The position numbers and the translations under genes are program-made. The notes under the pieces were generated by a model. That model was not told the DNA's origin, ran no database searches, and saw only the letters and a list, made by a program, of their open reading frames with translations. Below are positions 32,313 through 58,269 of a stretch of DNA of 64,000 nucleotides, one piece after another. Source of the stretch: Saccostrea echinata (taxonomy: Eukaryota); the NCBI RefSeq assembly GCF_033153115.1, contig NW_026889785.1, positions 9,114,001 to 9,178,000 of the forward strand, given 5' to 3'. Position 1 is the first letter of the stretch. The number at the start of each line of letters is the position of its first letter.

Positions 32313-33089
32313 ACTTAAAAGTGTGTAAAATTTGTCCAGCTATGTAACATTTAGGAAATCCCAAATAACCATTCATCACCTTCAACTTATCAGCGATTCT
32401 CCAGTAGCACACTGCAGTGCTGTAATATGATCCCGTTATCGACCATAGTCTGGTCGATGAATTTACAGAGTTTACAAGTCTCTATGTGTGACATTACCAA
32501 AAAGTATAGAAGAGAGCACTAAAACATAGAGGCTTAAACAAGTCTAATAAGGCAGCCAAAAATGGAGATAAATAAATAAAGAAAGAAAAGAAAAGGAAAA
32601 AGGGGCTGTCCAAACTCAACATTTTCATTTCTTTGAAGGAGGGATTACAACTTCCGACAAACATATTTTATATTATAATACATTCCCGTGGGATGATTTG
32701 ACGTACCATACTGCAAAAAAAGATGGAAGAGGGGGCAAGGGTGCGCCTTTTCAATGTTTGGGAAAAATGTGGAAGGGGCGGCCCTCCTGATGCTACGTGC
32801 CTGTATTATTTTACCTGATGTAAATATGCTTTATCAGGGGTTGAAATGTACGGTAGCCCGACGCCCGGGGCTAGTCATTTTAAGACTCGGGCTAGCTAAT
32901 TTATAAGTAACGATAATCCGTCGGACTAGCAGACCGGGAAAAAAATCTCGTCAGTTTACTTTCGTTTTCTTAATTTGGAGACTGGTTTCTTTTGACTGAG
33001 AACTAGTTTAATTTGTTTTTATCACCAAAGCGTTTGAAAGCAAGCAAATAAATAAACGCGATAAAGCATTTTAATCACATTGATCAAAA

Positions 33090-33317
33090 TTGAGTAAGCA
33101 AACAACGTTGTTCGCATTATCAAAAGTTCTGACGGGAATAAGAGGAAAAAGGTCAGTAGTGTGTCAGATAACGGAAGTATTAATAAAGGTGAAAAGAATG
33201 ATCATACCAAAAGAAAAAGAAAGTTTCAAGAGAGTTGGAGAGAAAGATTCCCGTGGGTGGAACTGGAAGTCCAGTCTCAATCTACAAGTGATACTGATAA
33301 CGGTGACTTGATGTATT
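33090..33317 (+). pseudogene. hAT transposase N-terminal part
   Basis: Reads RKFQESWRERFPWVEL...DLMY up to the TSD; continues in frame as CSYCR after 56018. Confidence 0.85.
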
Positions 33318-33508
33318 AGTAGTAAGGGGGACAGAGTACAGTCAGTATACAGTCACGATGACGTCATGGGGTTTTCCAGACCCCGCCCACATAGGTCATA
33401 ATATGGGTCACAGTCAAGGGGTGAGTCTACAGTCAATGACGTCATAGGTATCTAAGTGCAAAGAGTGAGTCTACAGTCAATGACCTCACGAGGTAGTTCA
33501 CAGTCAAG
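33318..33508 (+). repeat. Polinton left TIR
   Basis: Reverse complement of 55822-56012. Confidence 0.96.
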
Positions 33509-33690
33509 AGTGAGTCTACAGTCGCTGAGGATATTTAAGTGCACCAAGTGCGTCTACAGTCATTGAGGTCATTACAGTCAAGATCAAGCATTTCACAGTT
33601 TAGTGTGTCAAAGTGTGTTCACAAGGTTTTTTCACAGTCAAATACAGAAAAAAAGCAATAAATACCACAAACATTTAATTTGTTTTTGTT

Positions 33691-33930
33691 ATGACGATGA
33701 ATACTCAGGAAAAGCAGTACAAGTGGAAAATTTTAGCCTGGAGTGCTATAAGAAGAAATGAGAACAAATGGACATTGCAAGAAAGTCAATGGTTTGACAA
33801 AAAAGAGGATTGCATTGCTGATTTTAAGGAAAAAATGAAAAATGGTTATGACATTGCAGACTGCTGGGGATCTGAAGAATACCTACTAAAACGTCGAATT
33901 ATGCCAAAGAAATACTTCCCACATTCCTGA
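33691..33930 (+). CDS. Polinton hypothetical protein (79 aa, Trp-rich)
   Basis: ATG ORF, first in the left gene block, 12 nt upstream of the next ORF; no motif recognised. Confidence 0.6.
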   Translation: MTMNTQEKQYKWKILAWSAIRRNENKWTLQESQWFDKKEDCIADFKEKMKNGYDIADCWGSEEYLLKRRIMPKKYFPHS

Positions 33931-33942
33931 TAAAATATAGCT

Positions 33943-34170
33943 ATGTTAAAAATTCAACGAGGGAGTGGATGCATAAAAAAACTTAAATTTAATGATCATG
34001 TACAAGTAATTTTAATTCCATATGAAGATCGAAAGGGGATTTGGATGGAATTTGCCATAGATAGAGCTCATTTTAAGAGGAGAGTTCAACAAACGGAAAA
34101 TATTTTATTACCTGTGCTTCTTCAGAAGTTCAAACAATGTACACTTTACAGTCAAAAGAACGAAAAATAG
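33943..34170 (+). CDS. GADD34/ICP34.5/DP71L-like PP1-binding eIF2alpha phosphatase adaptor (75 aa)
   Basis: KKLKF (RVxF), VQVI, RKGIWMEFAIDRAHFKRRV..TENILLPVL match the PPP1R15 C-terminal core. Confidence 0.85.
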   Translation: MLKIQRGSGCIKKLKFNDHVQVILIPYEDRKGIWMEFAIDRAHFKRRVQQTENILLPVLLQKFKQCTLYSQKNEK

Positions 34171-34258
34171 GAAAAAGGGAGTGTCTCCCATTTTCGCCTA
34201 ATATGTATAAATAAGTGCCAGTGTGTTAAGTCAGCATACAGTGTTTTATACTGTGAAA

Positions 34259-34690
34259 ATGGATGGTCTTGTAGTAGAGAGAATGCTGAGGAGAATATCT
34301 TTCCAATGGATTCGACGCTTGAACGACTGTTTTCTCGTTTTAACAAGAAGAGAAGAAGAAGATCTAGTGTGGATCTTAATGTACCTGATGCAATGCCAGA
34401 AACTGGCACTTACCATTAAAGGGAAACTTAAGACTTTTAAAAAAGAGAATCTAAACATACCATTATCAAAGTGGAAAAAACTAACGAAGTTAGTGAATGA
34501 TCTTAAAAGGAAAACAGAGGGAATGGACGTGCAGCTCTCTGCAACAATGAGGAAAAAAGAAACACGCCACGCATGTGCTTATTATTTTGGAAAAACACTG
34601 TACAAGACTACAAAGGAATTACTTGAGACGCTTCAAAAAACTCGTAAATTCATAAAAACCAACCGAAAGAACTTTGTTGTGCAAAAATAA
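34259..34690 (+). CDS. Polinton hypothetical basic protein (143 aa)
   Basis: ATG at 34259, upstream TATAAATAAGT at 34206; Lys-rich; no motif recognised. Confidence 0.6.
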   Translation: MDGLVVERMLRRISFQWIRRLNDCFLVLTRREEEDLVWILMYLMQCQKLALTIKGKLKTFKKENLNIPLSKWKKLTKLVNDLKRKTEGMDVQLSATMRKKETRHACAYYFGKTLYKTTKELLETLQKTRKFIKTNRKNFVVQK

Positions 34691-35035
34691 CTGTCAAATG
34701 TGCCTATTGATTAAGAAAAAAAACAAGTTAATTTTACAAAGTATGTAAACAGACATTTGTACAATCAAGAGGTCACAGTCAATTGTTCTACAGTCAGTGC
34801 GTTCTACAGTCAACAGATTTCCACAGGAAGTGCATTCTACAGTCGGTGCGTTCTACAGTCAAAAATTCTACAATTGGTTCATTTTACAGACATGATTCTA
34901 CAGTCAATAGCCACGTGACTTGAATCATATATAAACTTTGAAAATTTCAAAAAGTTTCATCAGTTCTGAGCAAATCTCAGACAGGATACAACTCTGCTTT
35001 TTTTGTTCCTTGTGAGATCCTTGTCAGCAGCAGAA

Positions 35036-36019
35036 ATGGAGCAAAAACATCAAGACTTGATTAAGGCAAACTACTCGACATTGGTGAAGAAGATGATGGC
35101 TGTTCCTGTTGCGGGACATCTTTACGCCTCAAACATAATTACCGATGAAATGAGACAACAGATAGACGCTGAGAAAACCAGCTATGACAAAAACAGAAAA
35201 TTGATCAGCTTCATTTTACGTCGAGGTTCGAGAGCTTTTATGGGACTTAGAATGGCATTAATGAAAGCCAATCAAGCTGACTTATCCCGACTCCTAATGA
35301 ATAAGGATGATGACACAAAGTCTGAGTACGAAAAGAAGCTGGACATGGCAAGATCATTAGTCGTTAATACTAAAGAAAGAGGAGGTTCCAGAAATCAATC
35401 AAAGAAAGTCGATCATCAACAGTCTCAGGAGCCAAGATGTAGGATAAGTTTGGATGACTTTAATGACCTATTCCTCACCGTCATGCCTTTTAAGGGGGAG
35501 ATTTACGTCCACATCCGTCATTTCACAGAATCGCATGGTCGTTTCATTGCCACCAAGAAGGGAGTTACCTTTCCTTTAGCCCGTTGGTTAAAGTTTGAAT
35601 CTCTCTTACCAGATATTCAAGACTACATTGACAATACTGGAAAAGAGGATGAAGAAGCACAGTGGCATGTTGGTGGAGGTGTGTTCGTTTCGTTATCACC
35701 AGGCTATCCGACAGTGGACATAAGACACTTTTGGAAGCCAGACAATGTTCAAGAACCTATACCTACAAGGAAAGGTGTAACTCTAAACAGAAACAAATTT
35801 GCCAGACTTATCGATGTCATCGGGGAGATGCATGAATGTGTTCCAGAACTAAAAGACATTGAACTTTGCATGCTCAGCGAGTCTCATCAAAATCAGCTTG
35901 GAATGTTAAGCTGCCCGGAATGTACCCCCTTTGGCTACGATCCACAAGACAATATATCAATGGAATGTAACGCCGGTGATTTACAAGACAGGGAAACCAT
36001 TGAAAATGATCTTGAATGA
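35036..36019 (+). CDS. CARD + two PC4-like ssDNA-binding domains + C-H-CxxC finger (327 aa)
   Basis: N-terminal death-fold pattern (LIKANYSTLVKKM..HLYASNIITDEMRQQI..KNRKLISFILRRGSRAF..LRMAL..QADLSRLL); PC4 signatures FKGEIYVHIRHF..TKKGVTF..W and VDIRHFW..PTRKGVTL. Confidence 0.82.
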   Translation: MEQKHQDLIKANYSTLVKKMMAVPVAGHLYASNIITDEMRQQIDAEKTSYDKNRKLISFILRRGSRAFMGLRMALMKANQADLSRLLMNKDDDTKSEYEKKLDMARSLVVNTKERGGSRNQSKKVDHQQSQEPRCRISLDDFNDLFLTVMPFKGEIYVHIRHFTESHGRFIATKKGVTFPLARWLKFESLLPDIQDYIDNTGKEDEEAQWHVGGGVFVSLSPGYPTVDIRHFWKPDNVQEPIPTRKGVTLNRNKFARLIDVIGEMHECVPELKDIELCMLSESHQNQLGMLSCPECTPFGYDPQDNISMECNAGDLQDRETIENDLE

Positions 36020-36211
36020 CAATGAACACTAATCCAACATAATTAATGATATGGGTGTAACATTTATTTATTATTTATTGTGTATCTATCTTTTATGTTA
36101 CTATTTCATTCTAACAATATCAAAATAAAATAGTTCAAAATATACCTTGTATTTTTTTACAATGATATAAAATGTTACAACCGAAGAGAGAGATCATTAT
36201 TATGTTTCAGT

Positions 36212-37369
36212 ATGCCAGACTATACGGATTACTTAAGAGAGCTCTACTACACCCCCGGTAAATCGGGGGCCTATGCAGGGCCTGAAAAATTATATCAAGC
36301 TGTTAAACAGGAAGGCAAATACAAGATTGGTAGACGGAGAATAAGACAGTTTTTAAACAATGAAGATTCTTATAGTCTGTATAAACCTATTCGTAAAACA
36401 TTTCCGCGTTCAAAGGTGATAGTGAACACCATTGACTCTATGTGGGATGGTGACTTGGCAGACGTTTCAAACATTGCATCCCATAATGATGGATTTAAAT
36501 TCTTATTAGTGCTTATTGATATATTTAGTCGATATTTATTTATAGTCCCCTTACAAAATAAACATCATCAGAACATTGTTGATGGTTTAAAATCAGTTTT
36601 CCAAAAAGGACGAAAACCTAACACCCTTAGAACAGATAAGGGTAGCGAATTTAAAAATCGTTGGGTAAAGACATTTCTGAAAAAAGAGGGAATAAACGTC
36701 ATATACACTCAAAATGAAACAAAAGCAAATTATGCCGAGAGGGTAATTCGAACCATGAAGAACCTAATGTATCGTTATTTCATGAAGAATCGAACCTACC
36801 GTTTTGTGAATGTTTTGCAAGACTTGGTAAACAGTTACAACAATAGACCTCACAGATCATTAGGTGGGAATGCTCCAACCAATGTGAACCAAGAAAATGT
36901 CGATGAAATAAGACTCGAGTCTTATCTTTCGGGGAAAACAAAACTAGATCTGACCAAAAACGATCTGAACCAGTCTAATGAATCAAGCAAAACAAAAGTG
37001 AAAAAAAGAGTGAAACCCTTTTTCAAATTAAAAATTGGAGATAATGTCAGAATATCACAACTAAAATACCCTTTTCAAAGAGACTACCAACAGAAATGGA
37101 CAGAAGAGTTTTTTAAAGTGAGTGAAAGATACAAACGCGGTCAATTACCTGTGTACAAGGTAAAAGATTTAGCAGACGACCCTATAGAAGGTACATTCTA
37201 TGAGCCTGAGCTTCAAAAAGTCATAAAGTCAGAAGACGTTTCTTATAGAGTGGAGAAAATTCTTAAAAGAAGACGTCGTGGTAAAGCCAAAGAGGTGTAT
37301 GTAAAATGGGAAGGATGGCCAAAAAAATTTAATTCATGGATTCCGGAGAGCTCTCTGGAAAAACAATAA
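36212..37369 (+). CDS. Retroviral-like (rve) integrase with C-terminal chromodomain
   Basis: WDGDLAD, IDIFSRY, RTDKGSEF, AERVIRT, YNNRPH; YRVEKIL...YVKWEGWPKKFNSWIP. Confidence 0.96.
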   Translation: MPDYTDYLRELYYTPGKSGAYAGPEKLYQAVKQEGKYKIGRRRIRQFLNNEDSYSLYKPIRKTFPRSKVIVNTIDSMWDGDLADVSNIASHNDGFKFLLVLIDIFSRYLFIVPLQNKHHQNIVDGLKSVFQKGRKPNTLRTDKGSEFKNRWVKTFLKKEGINVIYTQNETKANYAERVIRTMKNLMYRYFMKNRTYRFVNVLQDLVNSYNNRPHRSLGGNAPTNVNQENVDEIRLESYLSGKTKLDLTKNDLNQSNESSKTKVKKRVKPFFKLKIGDNVRISQLKYPFQRDYQQKWTEEFFKVSERYKRGQLPVYKVKDLADDPIEGTFYEPELQKVIKSEDVSYRVEKILKRRRRGKAKEVYVKWEGWPKKFNSWIPESSLEKQ

Positions 37370-37404
37370 AAGCCATCATTTTTTAGCAATTTCTCTCATT
37401 CAAA

Positions 37405-37827
37405 ATGAGTGTTCGAATGGTGTTGACGTCTACGGACAGCTCTGAATATTTTGAAAATAAACCCAATTGCTTTCGAGTTCAATTAAATAAACAGATTCAA
37501 TTTGACGGATATTGGACTGTTGCCCTGACAGAATTTTCTACAGAGAGTTGGTTGTCATCTAAGAAGAAATCAGAGTTGTTTGTGTGTTGTGATATTTGTG
37601 AGGAAACGATAATTGGGGGAAAAGAGGCACCCCTTCTAAGACGCGTATACCTAGGTGAGAAACCAGAAAGTATCACTTACACACTACCTTATTACATTCC
37701 AGTTAAAATTAGCCAATTACAGCAGATCGCTATATATATAACAGACAGAGAAGGAAACTTAGTTTCATTCTTAAACGGACCGGTGACTGTAACACTTCAT
37801 TTCAAGAAGTTTCCATACGTTTTATGA
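37405..37827 (+). CDS. Minor capsid protein (penton-like single jelly-roll), short form
   Basis: LTSTDSSEYF.N...FRVQL..I...GYWTVAL.E, CDICEE.IIG....PLLRRV, YIPV, VTLHFKK resemble Polinton mCP. Confidence 0.75.
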   Translation: MSVRMVLTSTDSSEYFENKPNCFRVQLNKQIQFDGYWTVALTEFSTESWLSSKKKSELFVCCDICEETIIGGKEAPLLRRVYLGEKPESITYTLPYYIPVKISQLQQIAIYITDREGNLVSFLNGPVTVTLHFKKFPYVL

Positions 37828-38342
37828 TGAATAGCCAAACGTACGTGAGTGATCCCAGAATATGGGAAGCTTTCTACAAGAACATGGCAGAGAAAAAATT
37901 CAACCCTTACAAATACAAGCCAAAACAAATTGGGAGAGGTGTGAGAAGTTACAAGTCTTACGTCATCCCGCTGAGGCCTCACTCGCAGTTAGAACCTGTA
38001 GAAAACAGCACTCAAGTGACTCCAGTAGCTGCTGTGGAGGAAAGAGCTAAAGTGGAACATGCCAAGGACGTTAAAGAGGGGGTTCCATTTGTCAAAGTAC
38101 AGGGGAGTATAAAAAGGCCACATTCACAATCTTCTGTCATTCCTTCAAAGAAATTGAAGCCAACAACATCTCGAAATCCGAGGAAAAAACAGTCAACTAA
38201 ATCTGCAAAACAAAGAAAGGCCTCAGCAGTGAAGAAAAAGAAGACTGTTAAGAAACAACGACGAGCGCCACGCAAGAAAACACAGTCGAGAAAAAAGAAA
38301 GAATTTAACATTGACAGTTACAGAAGTGTCTTTAAACAGTAA
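37824..38342 (+). CDS. Basic, putative DNA-condensing core protein
   Basis: Very K/R-rich C-terminus, QIGRG motif, located between the two capsid genes. Confidence 0.6.
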   Translation: MMNSQTYVSDPRIWEAFYKNMAEKKFNPYKYKPKQIGRGVRSYKSYVIPLRPHSQLEPVENSTQVTPVAAVEERAKVEHAKDVKEGVPFVKVQGSIKRPHSQSSVIPSKKLKPTTSRNPRKKQSTKSAKQRKASAVKKKKTVKKQRRAPRKKTQSRKKKEFNIDSYRSVFKQ

Positions 38343-38344
38343 AA

Positions 38345-50400: not shown

Positions 50401-50934
50401 TAAAAAAATAAAAAAGGATCATTCAGCAACACACTGTGGCCTTCATATGTTATATTCAGGAACTACCGTAATAAGAAAGGGGTCGATTTACACATGTGCA
50501 CACATCTTTAGCAGAAAAATCAATAATACCACGTGACGTAGCATAAGCCACTTGTAAAGTGTTGACGGGGGACTGGTTTTGAAATGATACTTCTTTATGT
50601 GGCGGATTCAGGATTTACTGTTCCCAAAAAAAAGGGGGGGGGGTGTTGGAGTCGAAATCTAATTTACATGCGTTTTAAATTTTGTAAAAATGCATAATTT
50701 GCACTTACCACAAATACGACCACGAAGATCTCGAATCTTTATCATGGCAGGGTCCCCGAAGACAATCACCCGGTTAAGTCCACAGGATGTCACAAACACT
50801 TCACGAACTTCCGTCACGTTCACCCGGACTTCTCGACAGTCCGGCCAGTAACATGTCAACACCCTCCTGTCTACAGGTGCATTTTGCACCGATACAATAC
50901 ATGTCATAATGATTACGAGCGTTCTGTCGTCCAT
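47403..50934 (-). CDS. Spliced type I membrane mucin-stalk protein; exons 50934-50709, 49960-49904, 49654-49595, 49355-49323, 49125-49063, 48818-48786, 48603-48544, 48415-48371, then 48166-47883 or 48166-48080 + 47824-47403
   Basis: All junctions are GT-AG phase 1 and all internal exons are multiples of 3; signal peptide, 4-Cys head, Thr/Ser/Pro-rich stalk, TM followed by basic residues. Confidence 0.78.
48610..49780. repeat. ~535-bp tandem duplication that duplicates an exon pair
   Basis: Identical 33-nt exons at 48786 and 49323; near-identical exons at 49063 and 49595 with shared intron sequence. Confidence 0.85.
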
Positions 50935-52759: not shown

Positions 52760-54753
52760 ATGGCGCAGAAATATCTAGACATGATGTAAGTGTATTTTTC
52801 CTATTTCAATTTTAAAATTTTGTAAAACTAATAATATATGTATCTTAAATGTTAAAATAATAAAGCATTAAATCAAATTTAATTTTAAAAAAATCCAATC
52901 TTTTGTGATCATCTTTGATAATATATTATATAAATACCCCCTTATATATTTTGTTATATTTTTTAAACATTAATTTAGGTTTTAAAAATGTTAATGTTAT
53001 ATTATTTTTTTAAAAAAAAGGGATCAGGAAAAGGCAAGAACATTTAAGGATTTTGAGGACGAATGGGTGGCATTAGGAGAGGAACTCTGCCTTAATGCAT
53101 TTCAACCAGGGTAAGTTGAATGCTAAGAAAATTGAGTATAAATTCTACAAAAATAATACAAAAATAAAATTACAATATTTTTAAATAAGAGATATATTAC
53201 TATTTGAAATAAGTTAAATGTATTTTCTATAATTACATAAGAAAACCCCACTTTTTTAATATAAAACCTAACATTGATATTGATATAGAAATTCTCCTAA
53301 AGAAGAAAACACCCAGAGCCAACCCATCTCTCGAAAAAGACATTTATCCGAAACGGAGGATTCCTACATTTTAAATCAAAGGTATGTTTTATTTTTATGA
53401 ATTTCTTTAACAATTATTTAATATTATGTTAACACATAATTGTTTATATGTTATACCATATTCAAACATTTCGTTTTGAGACTTACTATACATGCATTAC
53501 CTCAAATTTCAACTAGGACTTGACGTAGCATTGTGAGTTTGTAAATATTTGATTTATCTGCAGAAGACTAAAGCAACAAAAGAGAACAGATGACGATCAA
53601 CAAAAGAGAAGGGATGACGATAGCATAATCACCAANNNNNNNNNNNNNNNNNNNNNNNNNNNNNNNNNNNNNNNNNNNNNNNNNNNNNNNNNNNNNNNNN
53701 NNNNNNNNNNNNNNNNNNNNNNNNNNNNNNNNNNNNNNNNNNNNNNNNNNNNNNNNNNNNNNNNNNNNNTTTAAATTTTTATTGATATACTATGGTACAT
53801 AGTATACATATAATACAAGCGAAATAAATTTCCAACTTTTGAATGTGGCATATAATAATAGCTGTTATTACTTTATTAAATTTTGGAAAAAAAAATTAGT
53901 AGTTATCTTTCCGGTTTTTTTTTTTTTGGTATTCAGAAAAAGGGACCCTTTAAGATTTAAAAAACTGGAGGAGAGGATAGGAGAAGACGGAACTCCCGGG
54001 TGTTGGTCCTCAGAGGGACTAAAGGCAGTAGCGACAATTACCCGGTACTCGCCCCAGTCTCCGGAATGCAGCGCCGCTGCGACTAGTACTGGGTTCTTGC
54101 CCCAGTCGCCGCCCCAGTCACTGGATTGCAGCACCAACGCGACAATTACCGGGTACTCGCCCCAGTCGCCGGAATGCACCGCATTAACCTCGGAGGGACT
54201 CAAGGCAGTAGCGACAATTACCCGGTACTCACCCCAGTCGCCGGAATGCACCGCATTAACCTCGGAGGGACTCAAGGCAGTAGCGACAATTACCCGGTAC
54301 TTACCCAAGTCGCCGGAATGCAGCGCCGCCGCGACTAGTACTGGGTTCTCGCCCCAGTCGCCGTCCCAGTCACTGGATTGCAGCACCAACGCGACAATTA
54401 CCGGGTACTCGCCCCAGTCGCCCGAATTCAACACCAACGCGACAATTACCGGGTACTCACCCCAGTCGCCGGATTGCAGCACCAACGCGACAATTACCGG
54501 GTACTCGCCCCAGTCGCCCGAATTCAACACCGCCGCGGCAAAGGGTGGTTACTTGACCCAATCACCCGGGCAGTCTAACACTACACCTGTGACCAGTTTG
54601 GATTTCTTAAAACGTGTAGTTGGCGGTGCCTTCCCCCTTCATAGGGAATTGGATGCCCTGAATGAGTTGGTCGACAGCATGAGAGTCGACCTGTTGCAGA
54701 CATCCATGCTGCTTAATTATGTTAAAGATTTTTTAAAGAGTTATAAATTTTAA
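52760..54753 (+). CDS. Spliced protein with YSPQSP repeats; exons 52760-52785, 53021-53110, 53289-53381, 53564-(gap), 53937-54753
   Basis: TATA 52663 and TCAGT 52695; all visible junctions are GT-AG phase 2; last exon has 6 exact YSPQSP plus 4 variants and a helical C-terminus. Confidence 0.7.
53636..53769. other. Assembly gap (N run)
   Basis: 134 N. Confidence 1.
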
Positions 54754-55821: not shown

Positions 55822-56012
55822 CTTGACTGTGAACTACCTCGTGAGGTCATTGACTGTAGACTCACTCTTTGCACTTAGATACCTATGACGTCATTGACTG
55901 TAGACTCACCCCTTGACTGTGACCCATATTATGACCTATGTGGGCGGGGTCTGGAAAACCCCATGACGTCATCGTGACTGTATACTGACTGTACTCTGTC
56001 CCCCTTACTACT
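55822..56012 (-). repeat. Polinton right TIR
   Basis: Reverse complement of 33318-33508; ends ACTACT. Confidence 0.96.
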
Positions 56013-56018
56013 TGTATT

Positions 56019-58269
56019 GTAGTTACTGTAGGACCTTTCCTGAATGTGCAAACAAAGCAAGTGCTTTATTCAAGGGAACCAATAATTTTAGAATTGATTC
56101 ATTGATTTCTCATGATAAAAATAGTGAACATTTTGTTGCAAGCAGACGCTATTTTACAAAAATTAAAACTGGTGACCAAAATAACAATCGACTCGAACTT
56201 AGAAATTCAAGTGAATCCTGTAGTAGTGGTGCTGTTGATAAATACAAAGAAAAACTGTTACCTACTGTTTCAAGCACAGAAATTGGCAAAGCAATGTACA
56301 GATTATCAGAGGAAGAAAAGAAAAAGATGACCATACTTTTTAACACAGCTTATGCAGTTGCAAAGAATGGAAAACCCTTTACTGATTATCTCTATTTGTA
56401 TGAACTGAATATGTTGAATGGTTTGTATTTGGGTGGCCAGTATATTAACATTCATGCTTGTGAAAGTTTTGTTGAAGCCATAAGTCAAACATATCGAGAG
56501 AAAATTCAGGCTGAAATTCTGAAGACAAACTGTGTTAGTATTCTGGCAGATGGTTCAACTGATGCTGCTGTAATGGAACAGGAAATTGTGTACTTGCGGT
56601 AAGTGTTTCAGTATGAGTATTTTCAGATGATAAACTGTTCTTGTCAGTGGGATTAAGGAATTGTATGGCAAAATAATTGAAAAAAAATTGCATGGAATAA
56701 AAAAATGGTAATATAAAAAGTCTGCATCAATTCATTATTCTTTTATTCTATAATTATTTATTAGGCATGTTCAGCCATATTCTGGAGTTCCTGTATGTAG
56801 ACAAATAGACATAATTGCTGTTCAATCTTCAGATGCCTCTGGAATCCTTGCTGCATTGCACCAGGCTGTAGAAAAGGGTGTGAATATCCACATGAATGAT
56901 CTCCATCCAAATCATGAGGGAACACCATCTCTTATAATGGACAATTTTGATGGAGCATCTGTTAACTTTGGGGCAAAGTCAGGAGTTGTGAAACTGAAGC
57001 AAGATTTTCCAGATCTGTTATCTTTACAATGTGTTGCACATAAATTAGAATTGTCAATTTTAGATGCTGTAAAATGTTGGAAATACCTCAGTGATGTTTT
57101 TGATGAGGCTGCTAAAGGAATATTCAAGTTTTATCACTATTCTCCAAAAAGAAGGAGAGAACTGAAAGCTATTGCAGAGGTACTTGACAAGGATCTAGTG
57201 CATTTTTCAAATGTAAAGCAAGTCAGATGGCTTGCCAGCAAGTCTAGAGCGCTTGCTACTGTAAAAAAAAAATTGAGCAGGTTGTTACTCATCTAAGGAC
57301 AAAAATTTGTCCAGTAAATGTTTAGAAAGTTCAAGCAAAGCTCTAGGCTATGTGAAAAAAATTAAATCTGTCAAATTTGTGAAGGTTTTTCATTTCATGC
57401 TTGATTTTTTACCTATTGTGGCAGATATGTCAAAAGCTTTCCAATCTGAGACTGTGTTGTTGTTTGAAGTACCAATACTTATTCAAGGGGTTATATTGGC
57501 TTTTGAATCACTAAAAACAAATCCAGGAACTCATATGCAAGAATTCCTAGATAGGTTTGATAGTGAGACATGCACATATAGTAGTGTAAAGTAAACAAAC
57601 AAAACCCAAACTCTCAATTACACTGATGATCATGAAGTCACCAAGTTTTTGTCTGATGTTATCACCTATGTGACAAAAAGGTTTGAAACATTGTACCAAC
57701 CACCTTTCTCTTTCTTTAGCATTTTCGATGTGGAAAAACTGGCCAGTCCTCATACCTGAACTTGGCCAATTTGGAGTTAGTGAGTTGATGTTAATTGTCA
57801 ATCACAAAAGCTTTTCATTTTTGTTTACAGAAGAAGAAAAGTTAGTGATTGTATCACAATGGTGTCTTTTAAAAGCTAAAGTAAGACACCTCAGACATGT
57901 ACCATTAGTTGATGTATTTTCTTCATTGATTGCTGAAAACAAAGTGAAAACAATCAGCTGGGTGCTATCTGTAAAGTTGTTGAAGTTATGATGACTCTCT
58001 CTCCCAGTACTGCTAGCTGTGAGAGGGGGTTTTCTATTCAAAACATTTTAAAAACAAACAAAAGAACTAGATTAACTCAAAGTAATCTTAGAAATCAGCT
58101 GCTTCTGATGACGGAAGGCCCCCCTGTAAATGAATTTATTGCAGATGAGAGTATTTCTAAGTGGTTGCTGTCAAGCACCAAAGGAAGACATATTCAGGGG
58201 CACAAACTGAAAGATACAAACAGAGATCCTGATTCAGAAATGTATTATGAAAGTAGTAAAGTAATATGA
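56019..58269 (+). pseudogene. hAT transposase remainder (frameshifts and stops; intron ~56599-56764)
   Basis: SILADGSTD, FDGASVNFG, QCVAHKLEL, VRWLAS and dimerisation motif STASCERGFS, spread over several frames. Confidence 0.9.

Follow-up and report, generated by a model that had tools for sequence, protein, structure and literature searches.

The 64,000 nucleotides of Saccostrea echinata DNA analysed here (NCBI RefSeq assembly GCF_033153115.1, contig NW_026889785.1, positions 9,114,001 to 9,178,000 of the forward strand; hereafter the window, numbered from its first letter) contain a Polinton of 22,695 bp, at whose left end four open reading frames (ORFs) are located on the + strand. On balance, this block probably serves a Polinton virus as a mixed early regulatory cassette. 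It would combine one well-supported counter-defence gene (ORF2), one CARD-bearing gene for a nucleic-acid-binding protein (ORF4) and two real genes of unknown function (ORF1 and ORF3). The original prediction, made from the sequence alone, had described an early counter-defence cassette of four compact + strand ORFs between the terminal inverted repeat (TIR) and the integrase, two of them with host-signalling motifs (a PP1 adaptor and a CARD) and two of them orphans. The arrangement was confirmed, as was the adaptor motif; the interpretation is supported in part.

ORF2 (75 amino acids, 33943-34170, +) encodes a minimal adaptor of protein phosphatase 1 (PP1) similar to PPP1R15, GADD34 and DP71L. 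It matches the Pfam family PP1c_bdg (PF10488) above the cut-off (E 2e-6). The best match in the PDB is DP71L of African swine fever virus (ASFV; 9nb9_B, E 1e-5), with PPP1R15B also at E 1e-5. In the alignment, L14/F16 of ORF2 correspond to V16/F18 of DP71L and L55/L59 to L57/L61 (residues from the available portion of PMC5346070), while R30, W34, D40, F44, R46 and R47 correspond to R578, W582, D588, F592, R594 and R595 of GADD34 (available portion of PMC8500838). Thus W582, F592 and R595, which contact PP1 or actin, and the leucines L57/L61 of DP71L are all kept in ORF2, as W34, F44, R47, L55 and L59. The ratio of non-synonymous to synonymous substitutions (dN/dS) was calculated for the window copy against its relatives according to NG86, using only pairs with finite dS, which are not independent of each other. 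The median was 0.26 for ORF2 (15 of 19 pairs finite), and no finite comparison reached 1 in any of the four genes. Residue conservation and profile matches make a well-supported case that ORF2 is a mimic of host PPP1R15/GADD34, which lifts the antiviral block of translation. Quite probably, the protein would bind host PP1 via its RVxF-type motif, engage G-actin and dephosphorylate eIF2α-P, an activity which would keep translation running when eIF2α kinases fire.

PP1 adaptors were matched in at least 150 places of the genome (150 of 259 candidates were scored, all of which matched). They are found in at least three Polinton families, subterminally or inside the TIRs. In the 20 stretches examined, these were the family of the window, a family encoding TBP and a CARD-less protein with two PC4 repeats (PC4x2), and a third family with a 28-34% identical capsid. 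Some copies in the TBP/PC4x2 family lie inside both TIRs as inverted pairs. The host PPP1R15 (locus L062) is a separate, long gene split by introns. Two pairs of loci (L046/L047 and L048/L049) represent elements of 16-17 kb with long TIRs holding the adaptor and PC4x2, hence two copies of each; no core genes were detected in them within the stretches examined. In the third family, at L052:3142-3695, an adaptor ORF of 166 amino acids overlaps a helical ORF of 137 amino acids in another frame and is followed by a RING-like ORF.

ORF4 (327 amino acids, 35036-36019, +) comprises a CARD (amino acids 7-89), two PC4 repeats (approx. 134-200 and 208-272), a putative zinc site (C278/H284/C293/C296) enclosing an LxCxE motif (291-295), and an acidic tail. 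The earlier description as a CARD gene holds in so far as the CARD is present (Pfam E 4e-12), but most of the protein is formed by the PC4 pair and the zinc region, none of the invariant residues falls within the CARD and it is missing from sister families. PC4 (PF02229) was matched in two stretches (E 4e-15) and PDB entry 1pcf at E 0.0085. In an alignment of 23 sequences, including three sister-family proteins without CARD, all invariant columns (G213, R230, P235, G247 and L250) belong to the second PC4 repeat, and near-invariant Cys and His residues are located in the zinc region. Aligned to human PC4, repeat one retains the FKG turn and repeat two the Trp that follows the DIR motif, both presumably in contact with DNA. 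The LxCxE motif, whose Cys belongs to the CxxC, is kept in 65 of the 71 homologues having the CxxCxP site; CARD-less relatives keep the CxxC but not the Glu of LxCxE. The nearest named relatives (93% identity in Saccostrea, 80% in Crassostrea, 69% in Ostrea) are annotated as uncharacterised oyster host genes, and the nearest apparent host CARD in the genome is approximately 31-34% identical to that of ORF4. No confirmed loci were found in metagenome or viral contig collections. Median dN/dS was 0.11 (6 of 19 pairs finite, the remainder saturated).

A TBP homologue was found beside PC4x2 in four loci; in one of these, from a sister Polinton family, it separates PC4x2 from the integrase (L051:6041-6622, -; Pfam E 4e-23). 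A further type of ORF combines a strong membrane helix with one PC4-like domain (L009:1850-2338 and L095:4219-4680; Pfam E 1e-3 and 2e-7). According to the accessible text of PMC7549692, PC4 folds act as dimers which bind and unwind DNA, and a PC4 homologue of phage T5 is tied to replication; the tandem PC4 pair of ORF4 therefore fits a role in binding single-stranded DNA (ssDNA) or as coactivator. Scallop PC4 genes are described as two-domain and partly single-exon (accessible text of PMC9223095). ORF4 is likely to be mainly a DNA-binding protein with a CARD attached, with a core job in replication or transcription. Its single chain would fold into a PC4 pseudo-dimer that carries a zinc knuckle and binds melted or single-stranded DNA. 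It is rather probable that ORF4 provides ssDNA binding during protein-primed strand-displacement replication, acts as a coactivator of RNA polymerase II (Pol II), or does both. For the CARD, a function as add-on decoy of host CARD signalling has a little less than an even chance, a function as oligomerisation module is somewhat less expected, and engagement of Rb by the LxCxE motif appears unlikely.

ORF1 (79 amino acids, 33691-33930, +) and ORF3 (143 amino acids) had been put forward as orphans and candidate immune antagonists. Neither was assigned to a named family, but both have relatives and both are conserved. Neither contains the Gly-rich motif that three of the core proteins share, which we take to be a protease site. 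ORF1 encodes a small soluble domain, with the start Met of its relatives aligning to residue 3. The 24 homologues share 57-82% identity, and median dN/dS was 0.19 (24 of 50 pairs finite). A search of 1.84 billion proteins gave 69 clusters (50% identity) for the wider family; of the 45 inspected, two (P0128 and P0170) were judged false and removed as repeat-driven matches. The domain is single in the element of the window, duplicated as paralogues in some elements and present in tandem in the third Polinton family, where the gene lies between the integrase and the putative minor capsid gene. Hence the family is not always terminal and not terminus-specific, at variance with the earlier placing of ORF1 among terminal host-interaction genes. 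The third-family gene is adjoined by Cys-rich ORFs, presumably RING-like. In two proteins, P0123 (annotated as a Saccostrea host gene) and P0146, a BIR domain (E 6e-21 in P0146) is joined to the ORF1-family domain; these joins possibly arose by deletion or by gene-model error.

No Pfam match was obtained for ORF1, and profile searches against Pfam, PHROGs and the PDB were without significant match, as was a comparison with the PC4 profile. An Atlas score of 0.84 was taken as a lead only, and no family was assigned. A DUF1508/YegP identity was not confirmed, with no PF07411 match in the genome; hhalign returned probabilities of 0.2% and 1.6%, the latter with P 0.03 and above 60 of 60 column shuffles, again a lead only. 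Foldseek with the ORF1 model gave no match at E ≤ 0.001 among the 25 listed. Profile searches for both orphans and Foldseek for ORF1, the latter a check suggested earlier, yielded neither fold nor function. ORF1 represents an old conserved family with single or tandem domains. Tentatively, and at somewhat less than an even chance, it would be a small and ancient beta-beta-alpha-beta adaptor that works as a dimer, most likely in regulation; a dedicated immune antagonist is less favoured and rather doubtful.

ORF3 (34259-34690, +) encodes a basic protein without transmembrane segment, for which four long helices are predicted from the sequence pattern, and occupies a variable slot. Three sub-threshold Pfam matches (E 0.02-0.1) and an Atlas score of 0.76, a lead only, led to no family assignment. 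Profile searches in Pfam, PHROGs and the PDB were without significant match, and none was found in a search of 5.8 billion proteins (15 candidates). In the genome, 15 matches were detected; divergent copies (28-43% identity, protein search) are always located directly after the PP1 adaptor. The gene is patchy, being present in 14 of 69 left-end loci. Its dN/dS is 0.30-0.63 (median 0.58, 6 of 6 pairs finite). Within one and the same element pair, the ratio is two to four times that of neighbouring genes, e.g. 0.62 versus 0.17 for ORF4 between L035 and L038. These features suggest ORF3 as the best candidate for a new antagonist among the block genes. It would fill an exchangeable slot, most likely as a host-protein-binding helical bundle; an immune or death protein as its target is possible, yet not the expected outcome.

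The comparison of gene order called for by the original prediction revealed a variable cassette. Of 111 loci, 69 entered the census, which excluded repeat entries for one place as well as loci lacking a left end of this kind; all had been chosen by searches for block genes, so that the counts are biased. These 69 loci showed 24 gene orders, with the PP1 adaptor in 64, ORF1 in 54, PC4x2 in 51 and the CARD in 47, besides the membrane-anchored PC4-like ORF (33), a Cys-rich ORF of 161 amino acids (8), a macrodomain-like ORF (6) and TBP (4). The 161-residue orphan, with an IxCxD variant near its N-terminus, takes the place of ORF1 (e.g. L035:2307-2789, -). The macrodomain-like ORF follows the adaptor in CARD-less elements (L098:2276-2794, -; L095; L097); its name is our assumption, with no Pfam match and a PDB E-value of only 0.38. 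Among 30 loci found by DNA similarity to the block, ORF1 was present in 30, ORF2 in 29, ORF4 in 26 (a lower count due to short loci) and ORF3 in 3. Between the window and L009, dS was 0.17 for ORF4, 0.44 for ORF1 and 1.90 for ORF2, while between L009 and L058 it was 0.47 for ORF2 and saturated for ORF4. Since divergence differs gene by gene for the same two elements, block genes have been exchanged singly between elements by recombination. A layout of host-interaction ends around a conserved core, as proposed earlier, is plausible. For the capsid, the median dN/dS of the window copy against relatives was 0.02-0.05.

TATA boxes upstream of the block genes are conserved in position. The putative promoter of ORF1 and ORF2 (33338..33665, +) contains an ACAGTCA array, two TGACGTCA sites, which we take to be CRE-like, and an ATAAAT box; ORF2 is probably cotranscribed with ORF1, from which it is separated by 12 nt. 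ACAGTCA occurs 27 times in the 22.7-kb element, nine of them within 33338..33665, versus 8 times in 41.3 kb outside, and clusters in both TIR regions and upstream of ORF4, which suggests shared regulation. All five copies of TGACGTCA in the element are terminal. TATA[AT]A was found in 14 of 31 upstream regions of ORF1, the remainder having ATAAAT at the same place. ORF3 is preceded by a TATA box and an initiator-like TCAGC (34206..34235, +), with TATA[AT]A 49-68 nt before the gene in 9 of 10 distinct upstream regions. The ORF4 promoter (34775..34965, +) includes five ACAGTCA copies, CACGTG at 34912, TATA at 34928 and TCAGT at 34960, and TATA[AT]A lies at a constant distance in 31 of 33 distinct regions. 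Host Pol II would read the block from three TATA promoters, for ORF1 plus ORF2, ORF3 and ORF4. Four of 24 listed sequencing runs were mapped onto window positions 33300-42300. Run X6 covers the region near-evenly, including TIR and flanks, and looks like DNA, and the sparse run X1 may also be DNA; contigs from both were not counted as transcription. Joints at 33445 in X6 had hinted that a leader might be spliced from the TIR onto ORF1 and ORF4. This was rejected: the sides of the joints are only 22-23 letters long, and in relatives the same repeat motif stands upstream of ORF4, which together account for the apparent joints.

Several observations weigh against a mixed early regulatory cassette. 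The RVxF-type motif of ORF2 reads KKLKF, with Leu replacing the Val; the majority of relatives carry Val or Ile. His43 occupies the position of GADD34 Arg591, leaving the full eIF2α-binding motif incomplete; Arg591 contacts eIF2α, and the R591A mutant enzyme is weakened (available portion of PMC8500838). In a set of 41 distinct adaptors this residue is His in 19 and Arg in 22; a tree without the host gene and broken copies places the His type on one side of a branch whose support is weak (60/39). Arg-type relatives match the full motif, the window copy being a variant; as the His-type adaptor is still under purifying selection, it would be functional in some way. In ORF4, the CARD averages 74% identity among 58 close homologues, against 73% and 69% in the two PC4 repeats; the mean is 89% in the zinc region and 44% in the linker. 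A CARD-PC4x2 protein of 33% identity is also encoded close to the end of a distant Polinton whose polymerase is of another type. The CARD, as conserved as PC4, may therefore be integral and not an add-on. The AlphaFold model of ORF1 (25 close sequences) is all-helical with a pLDDT of 60 and no usable fold. TATAAA shows no enrichment within the element (1.89 versus 2.11 per kb, its position being assessed without shuffle control). From two poly(A) runs, 34 and 16 reads mapped to 9 kb, none over 33601-37513; all but one of these reads were less than 95% alike, and the runs may not carry the subfamily of the window.

The lack of transcripts over the block in these two runs, together with the many broken copies, would fit small ORFs that arose as chance frames or were captured from the host as neutral cargo. 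This is very improbable given dN/dS below 1 in every finite comparison of the four genes, homologues in other oyster species and metagenomes, and upstream boxes conserved in position. The His at the Arg591 position is more in line with a housekeeping early module without immune role, in which ORF4 and ORF1 serve replication or transcription, the CARD only oligomerises and ORF2 relieves general stress of the endoplasmic reticulum (ER) or of nutrients, or directs PP1 to another substrate. TBP, PC4x2 and the membrane-anchored PC4-like ORF as common neighbours also fit, as does a right end that seems to encode ER-loading membrane glycoproteins. Such a module is nonetheless improbable, for the other substrate- and actin-facing residues of ORF2 are kept, 22 of 41 adaptors have the Arg and the adaptor is swapped between close elements. 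Moreover, oyster PERK is induced by poly(I:C) (accessible part of PMC9680061), so that relief of eIF2α-P would be counter-defence either way. The opposite extreme is a cassette in which all four genes chiefly antagonise immunity, the PC4 pair hiding viral ssDNA, the CARD blocking signalling and the orphans being new antagonists. It draws on the swapped modules, the fast-evolving ORF3, the constrained CARD, the two ORF1-family proteins joined to BIR and the presumed macrodomain ORF, which also uses the slot in 6 of 69 loci, none with a CARD. It is unlikely, if less so than the housekeeping module: PC4x2 is kept without a CARD and adjoins TBP, ORF1 is strongly purified (dN/dS 0.19) and internal in another family, and neither orphan resembled a known antagonist in profile searches. 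The mixed early regulatory cassette is thus preferred. A bolder form of it, for which the chances are rather low, would have actively infectious mollusc Polintons with a recombining early region, a minimal eIF2α-phosphatase adaptor as near-core gene of their lineages with a His clade retuned in substrate or affinity, a CARD-PC4-PC4-zinc protein as the Polinton ssDNA-binding protein whose CARD links coating of the genome to a block of CARD signalling, and ORF1 and ORF3 as new classes of host-binding effectors.

The element shows the hallmarks of Polintons/Mavericks, namely TIRs starting with AG, a 6-bp target-site duplication, a size within 15-25 kb, a protein-primed DNA polymerase B (pPolB) and an RVE integrase. 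The duplicated hexamer TGTATT (33312..33317) recurs identically at 56013-56018, and the left TIR (33318..33508, +, starting AGTAGT) is 100% complementary to the right TIR (55822..56012, -) over 191 nt. The identity of the TIRs together with the duplication points to a recent insertion. The integrase with chromodomain (36212..37369, +; Pfam rve E 1e-11, Chromo E 6e-10) is followed by a core virion module (37405..41531, +) of putative minor capsid, basic protein, capsid, protease and ATPase, including two small ORFs. The predicted major capsid (38345-39661, +) has a match to a double-jelly-roll-like Pfam family (E 0.003) and the predicted packaging ATPase (40226-40909, +) one to Pox_A32 (E 0.001), both under the cut-off. 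The minor capsid and the protease (39658-40125, +) lack a Pfam match and are presumed from position and motif. The pPolB (41631..46340, -) is in two pieces (PF03175, E 6e-25 and 8e-20), with a gap that reads as a GT-AG intron. A DNA similarity search with the block yielded 51 genome matches, two of them near-identical copies, one of which is interrupted by a stop in ORF4 and has lost part of the core by deletion. Family copies are mostly concentrated on four contigs (C5, C6, C33 and C36). At the right end, a 316-codon stop-free frame (53803-54750, +) with repeated YSPQSPE units, which we take to resemble the heptad of the Pol II C-terminal domain, is probably the last exon of a spliced gene beginning near 52760. 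A hydrophobic N-terminal ORF followed by many short Thr/Pro-rich candidate exons (47406-50934, -), with two frames with membrane-like segments and an internal duplication of approx. 535 nt, is a probable gene for mucin-like type I membrane glycoprotein(s). The Polinton is surrounded by a decayed transposase frame, presumably hAT-like, which apparently continues on both sides (56294-58269, +, and 33084-33319). Elsewhere in the window, tandem arrays of 156-168 nt units (7270-8364, 19820-21303 and 25686-27173) and a perfect inverted pair of 192 nt (6001-6192 and 18711-18902) were found.

The adaptor bears on whether animal Polintons are truly infectious viruses. A selected, widespread and often swapped antagonist of translational shut-off would be needed by a replicating virus and hardly by a passive transposon. 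The adaptor also lends itself to direct assay in a farmed animal, within a viral lineage of which hardly any accessory genes have been tested. ORF4 is a candidate ssDNA-binding protein for Polinton replication; none is named in the accessible part of PMC11161782. Judging from the relatives of ORF4, many "host" CARD-PC4 genes in oyster annotations are probably proviral, which is relevant to catalogues of oyster immune genes.

Adenoviruses carry terminal early regions (E1, E3 and E4), on which the original prediction had modelled the block. The likeness holds for position, as both have terminal, TATA-driven, variable small genes flanking a conserved core, but not for homology, since profile searches in Pfam, PHROGs and the PDB gave no similarity of the block proteins to adenovirus early proteins. 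Iridovirus vCARD and E10 of equine herpesvirus 2 are viral CARD-only decoys; ORF4 shares a host-like CARD with them, although here it is fused to PC4x2 and does not stand alone. With the PC4/Sub1 family (phage T5 homologue, two-repeat type I PC4-like folds), ORF4 shares two PC4 repeats per chain, to which it adds the N-terminal CARD and the C-terminal Cys/His site with LxCxE. Host-interaction genes known from animal Polintons or adintoviruses are Oncoids (LxCxE beside CxxC, followed by a CK2 site), Bcl2 and IAP homologues (available sections of PMC8502044). In Oncoids, typically upstream of PolB, LxCxE adjoins CxxC, whereas in ORF4 it lies within it. A PPP1R15 mimic or CARD-PC4 fusion in Polintons was not reported in the top-listed literature, though figure supplements or Repbase could hold one; term searches found neither in the available sections of PMC8502044, PMC11131425, 10.64898/2026.10.13.758929 and 10.1101/2025.04.19.649669. 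A table of 391 proteins mentioned in the accessible part of bioRxiv 10.1101/2025.02.28.640897 could hold such proteins. The closest counterparts of ORF2 are ASFV DP71L (71 amino acids), ICP34.5 of herpes simplex virus 1 and the core of host GADD34/CReP, with which it shares the size and the bare architecture for binding PP1 and eIF2α/actin. The Phe of RVxF, RxGxW, DRxxF..RR and the two LSAVL leucines all align with ORF2. What sets it apart from these counterparts is that its subclade shows His in place of Arg591 and Leu in place of the Val of RVxF, and that such adaptors travel with integrating Polintons, at about 150 or more sites within a single genome.

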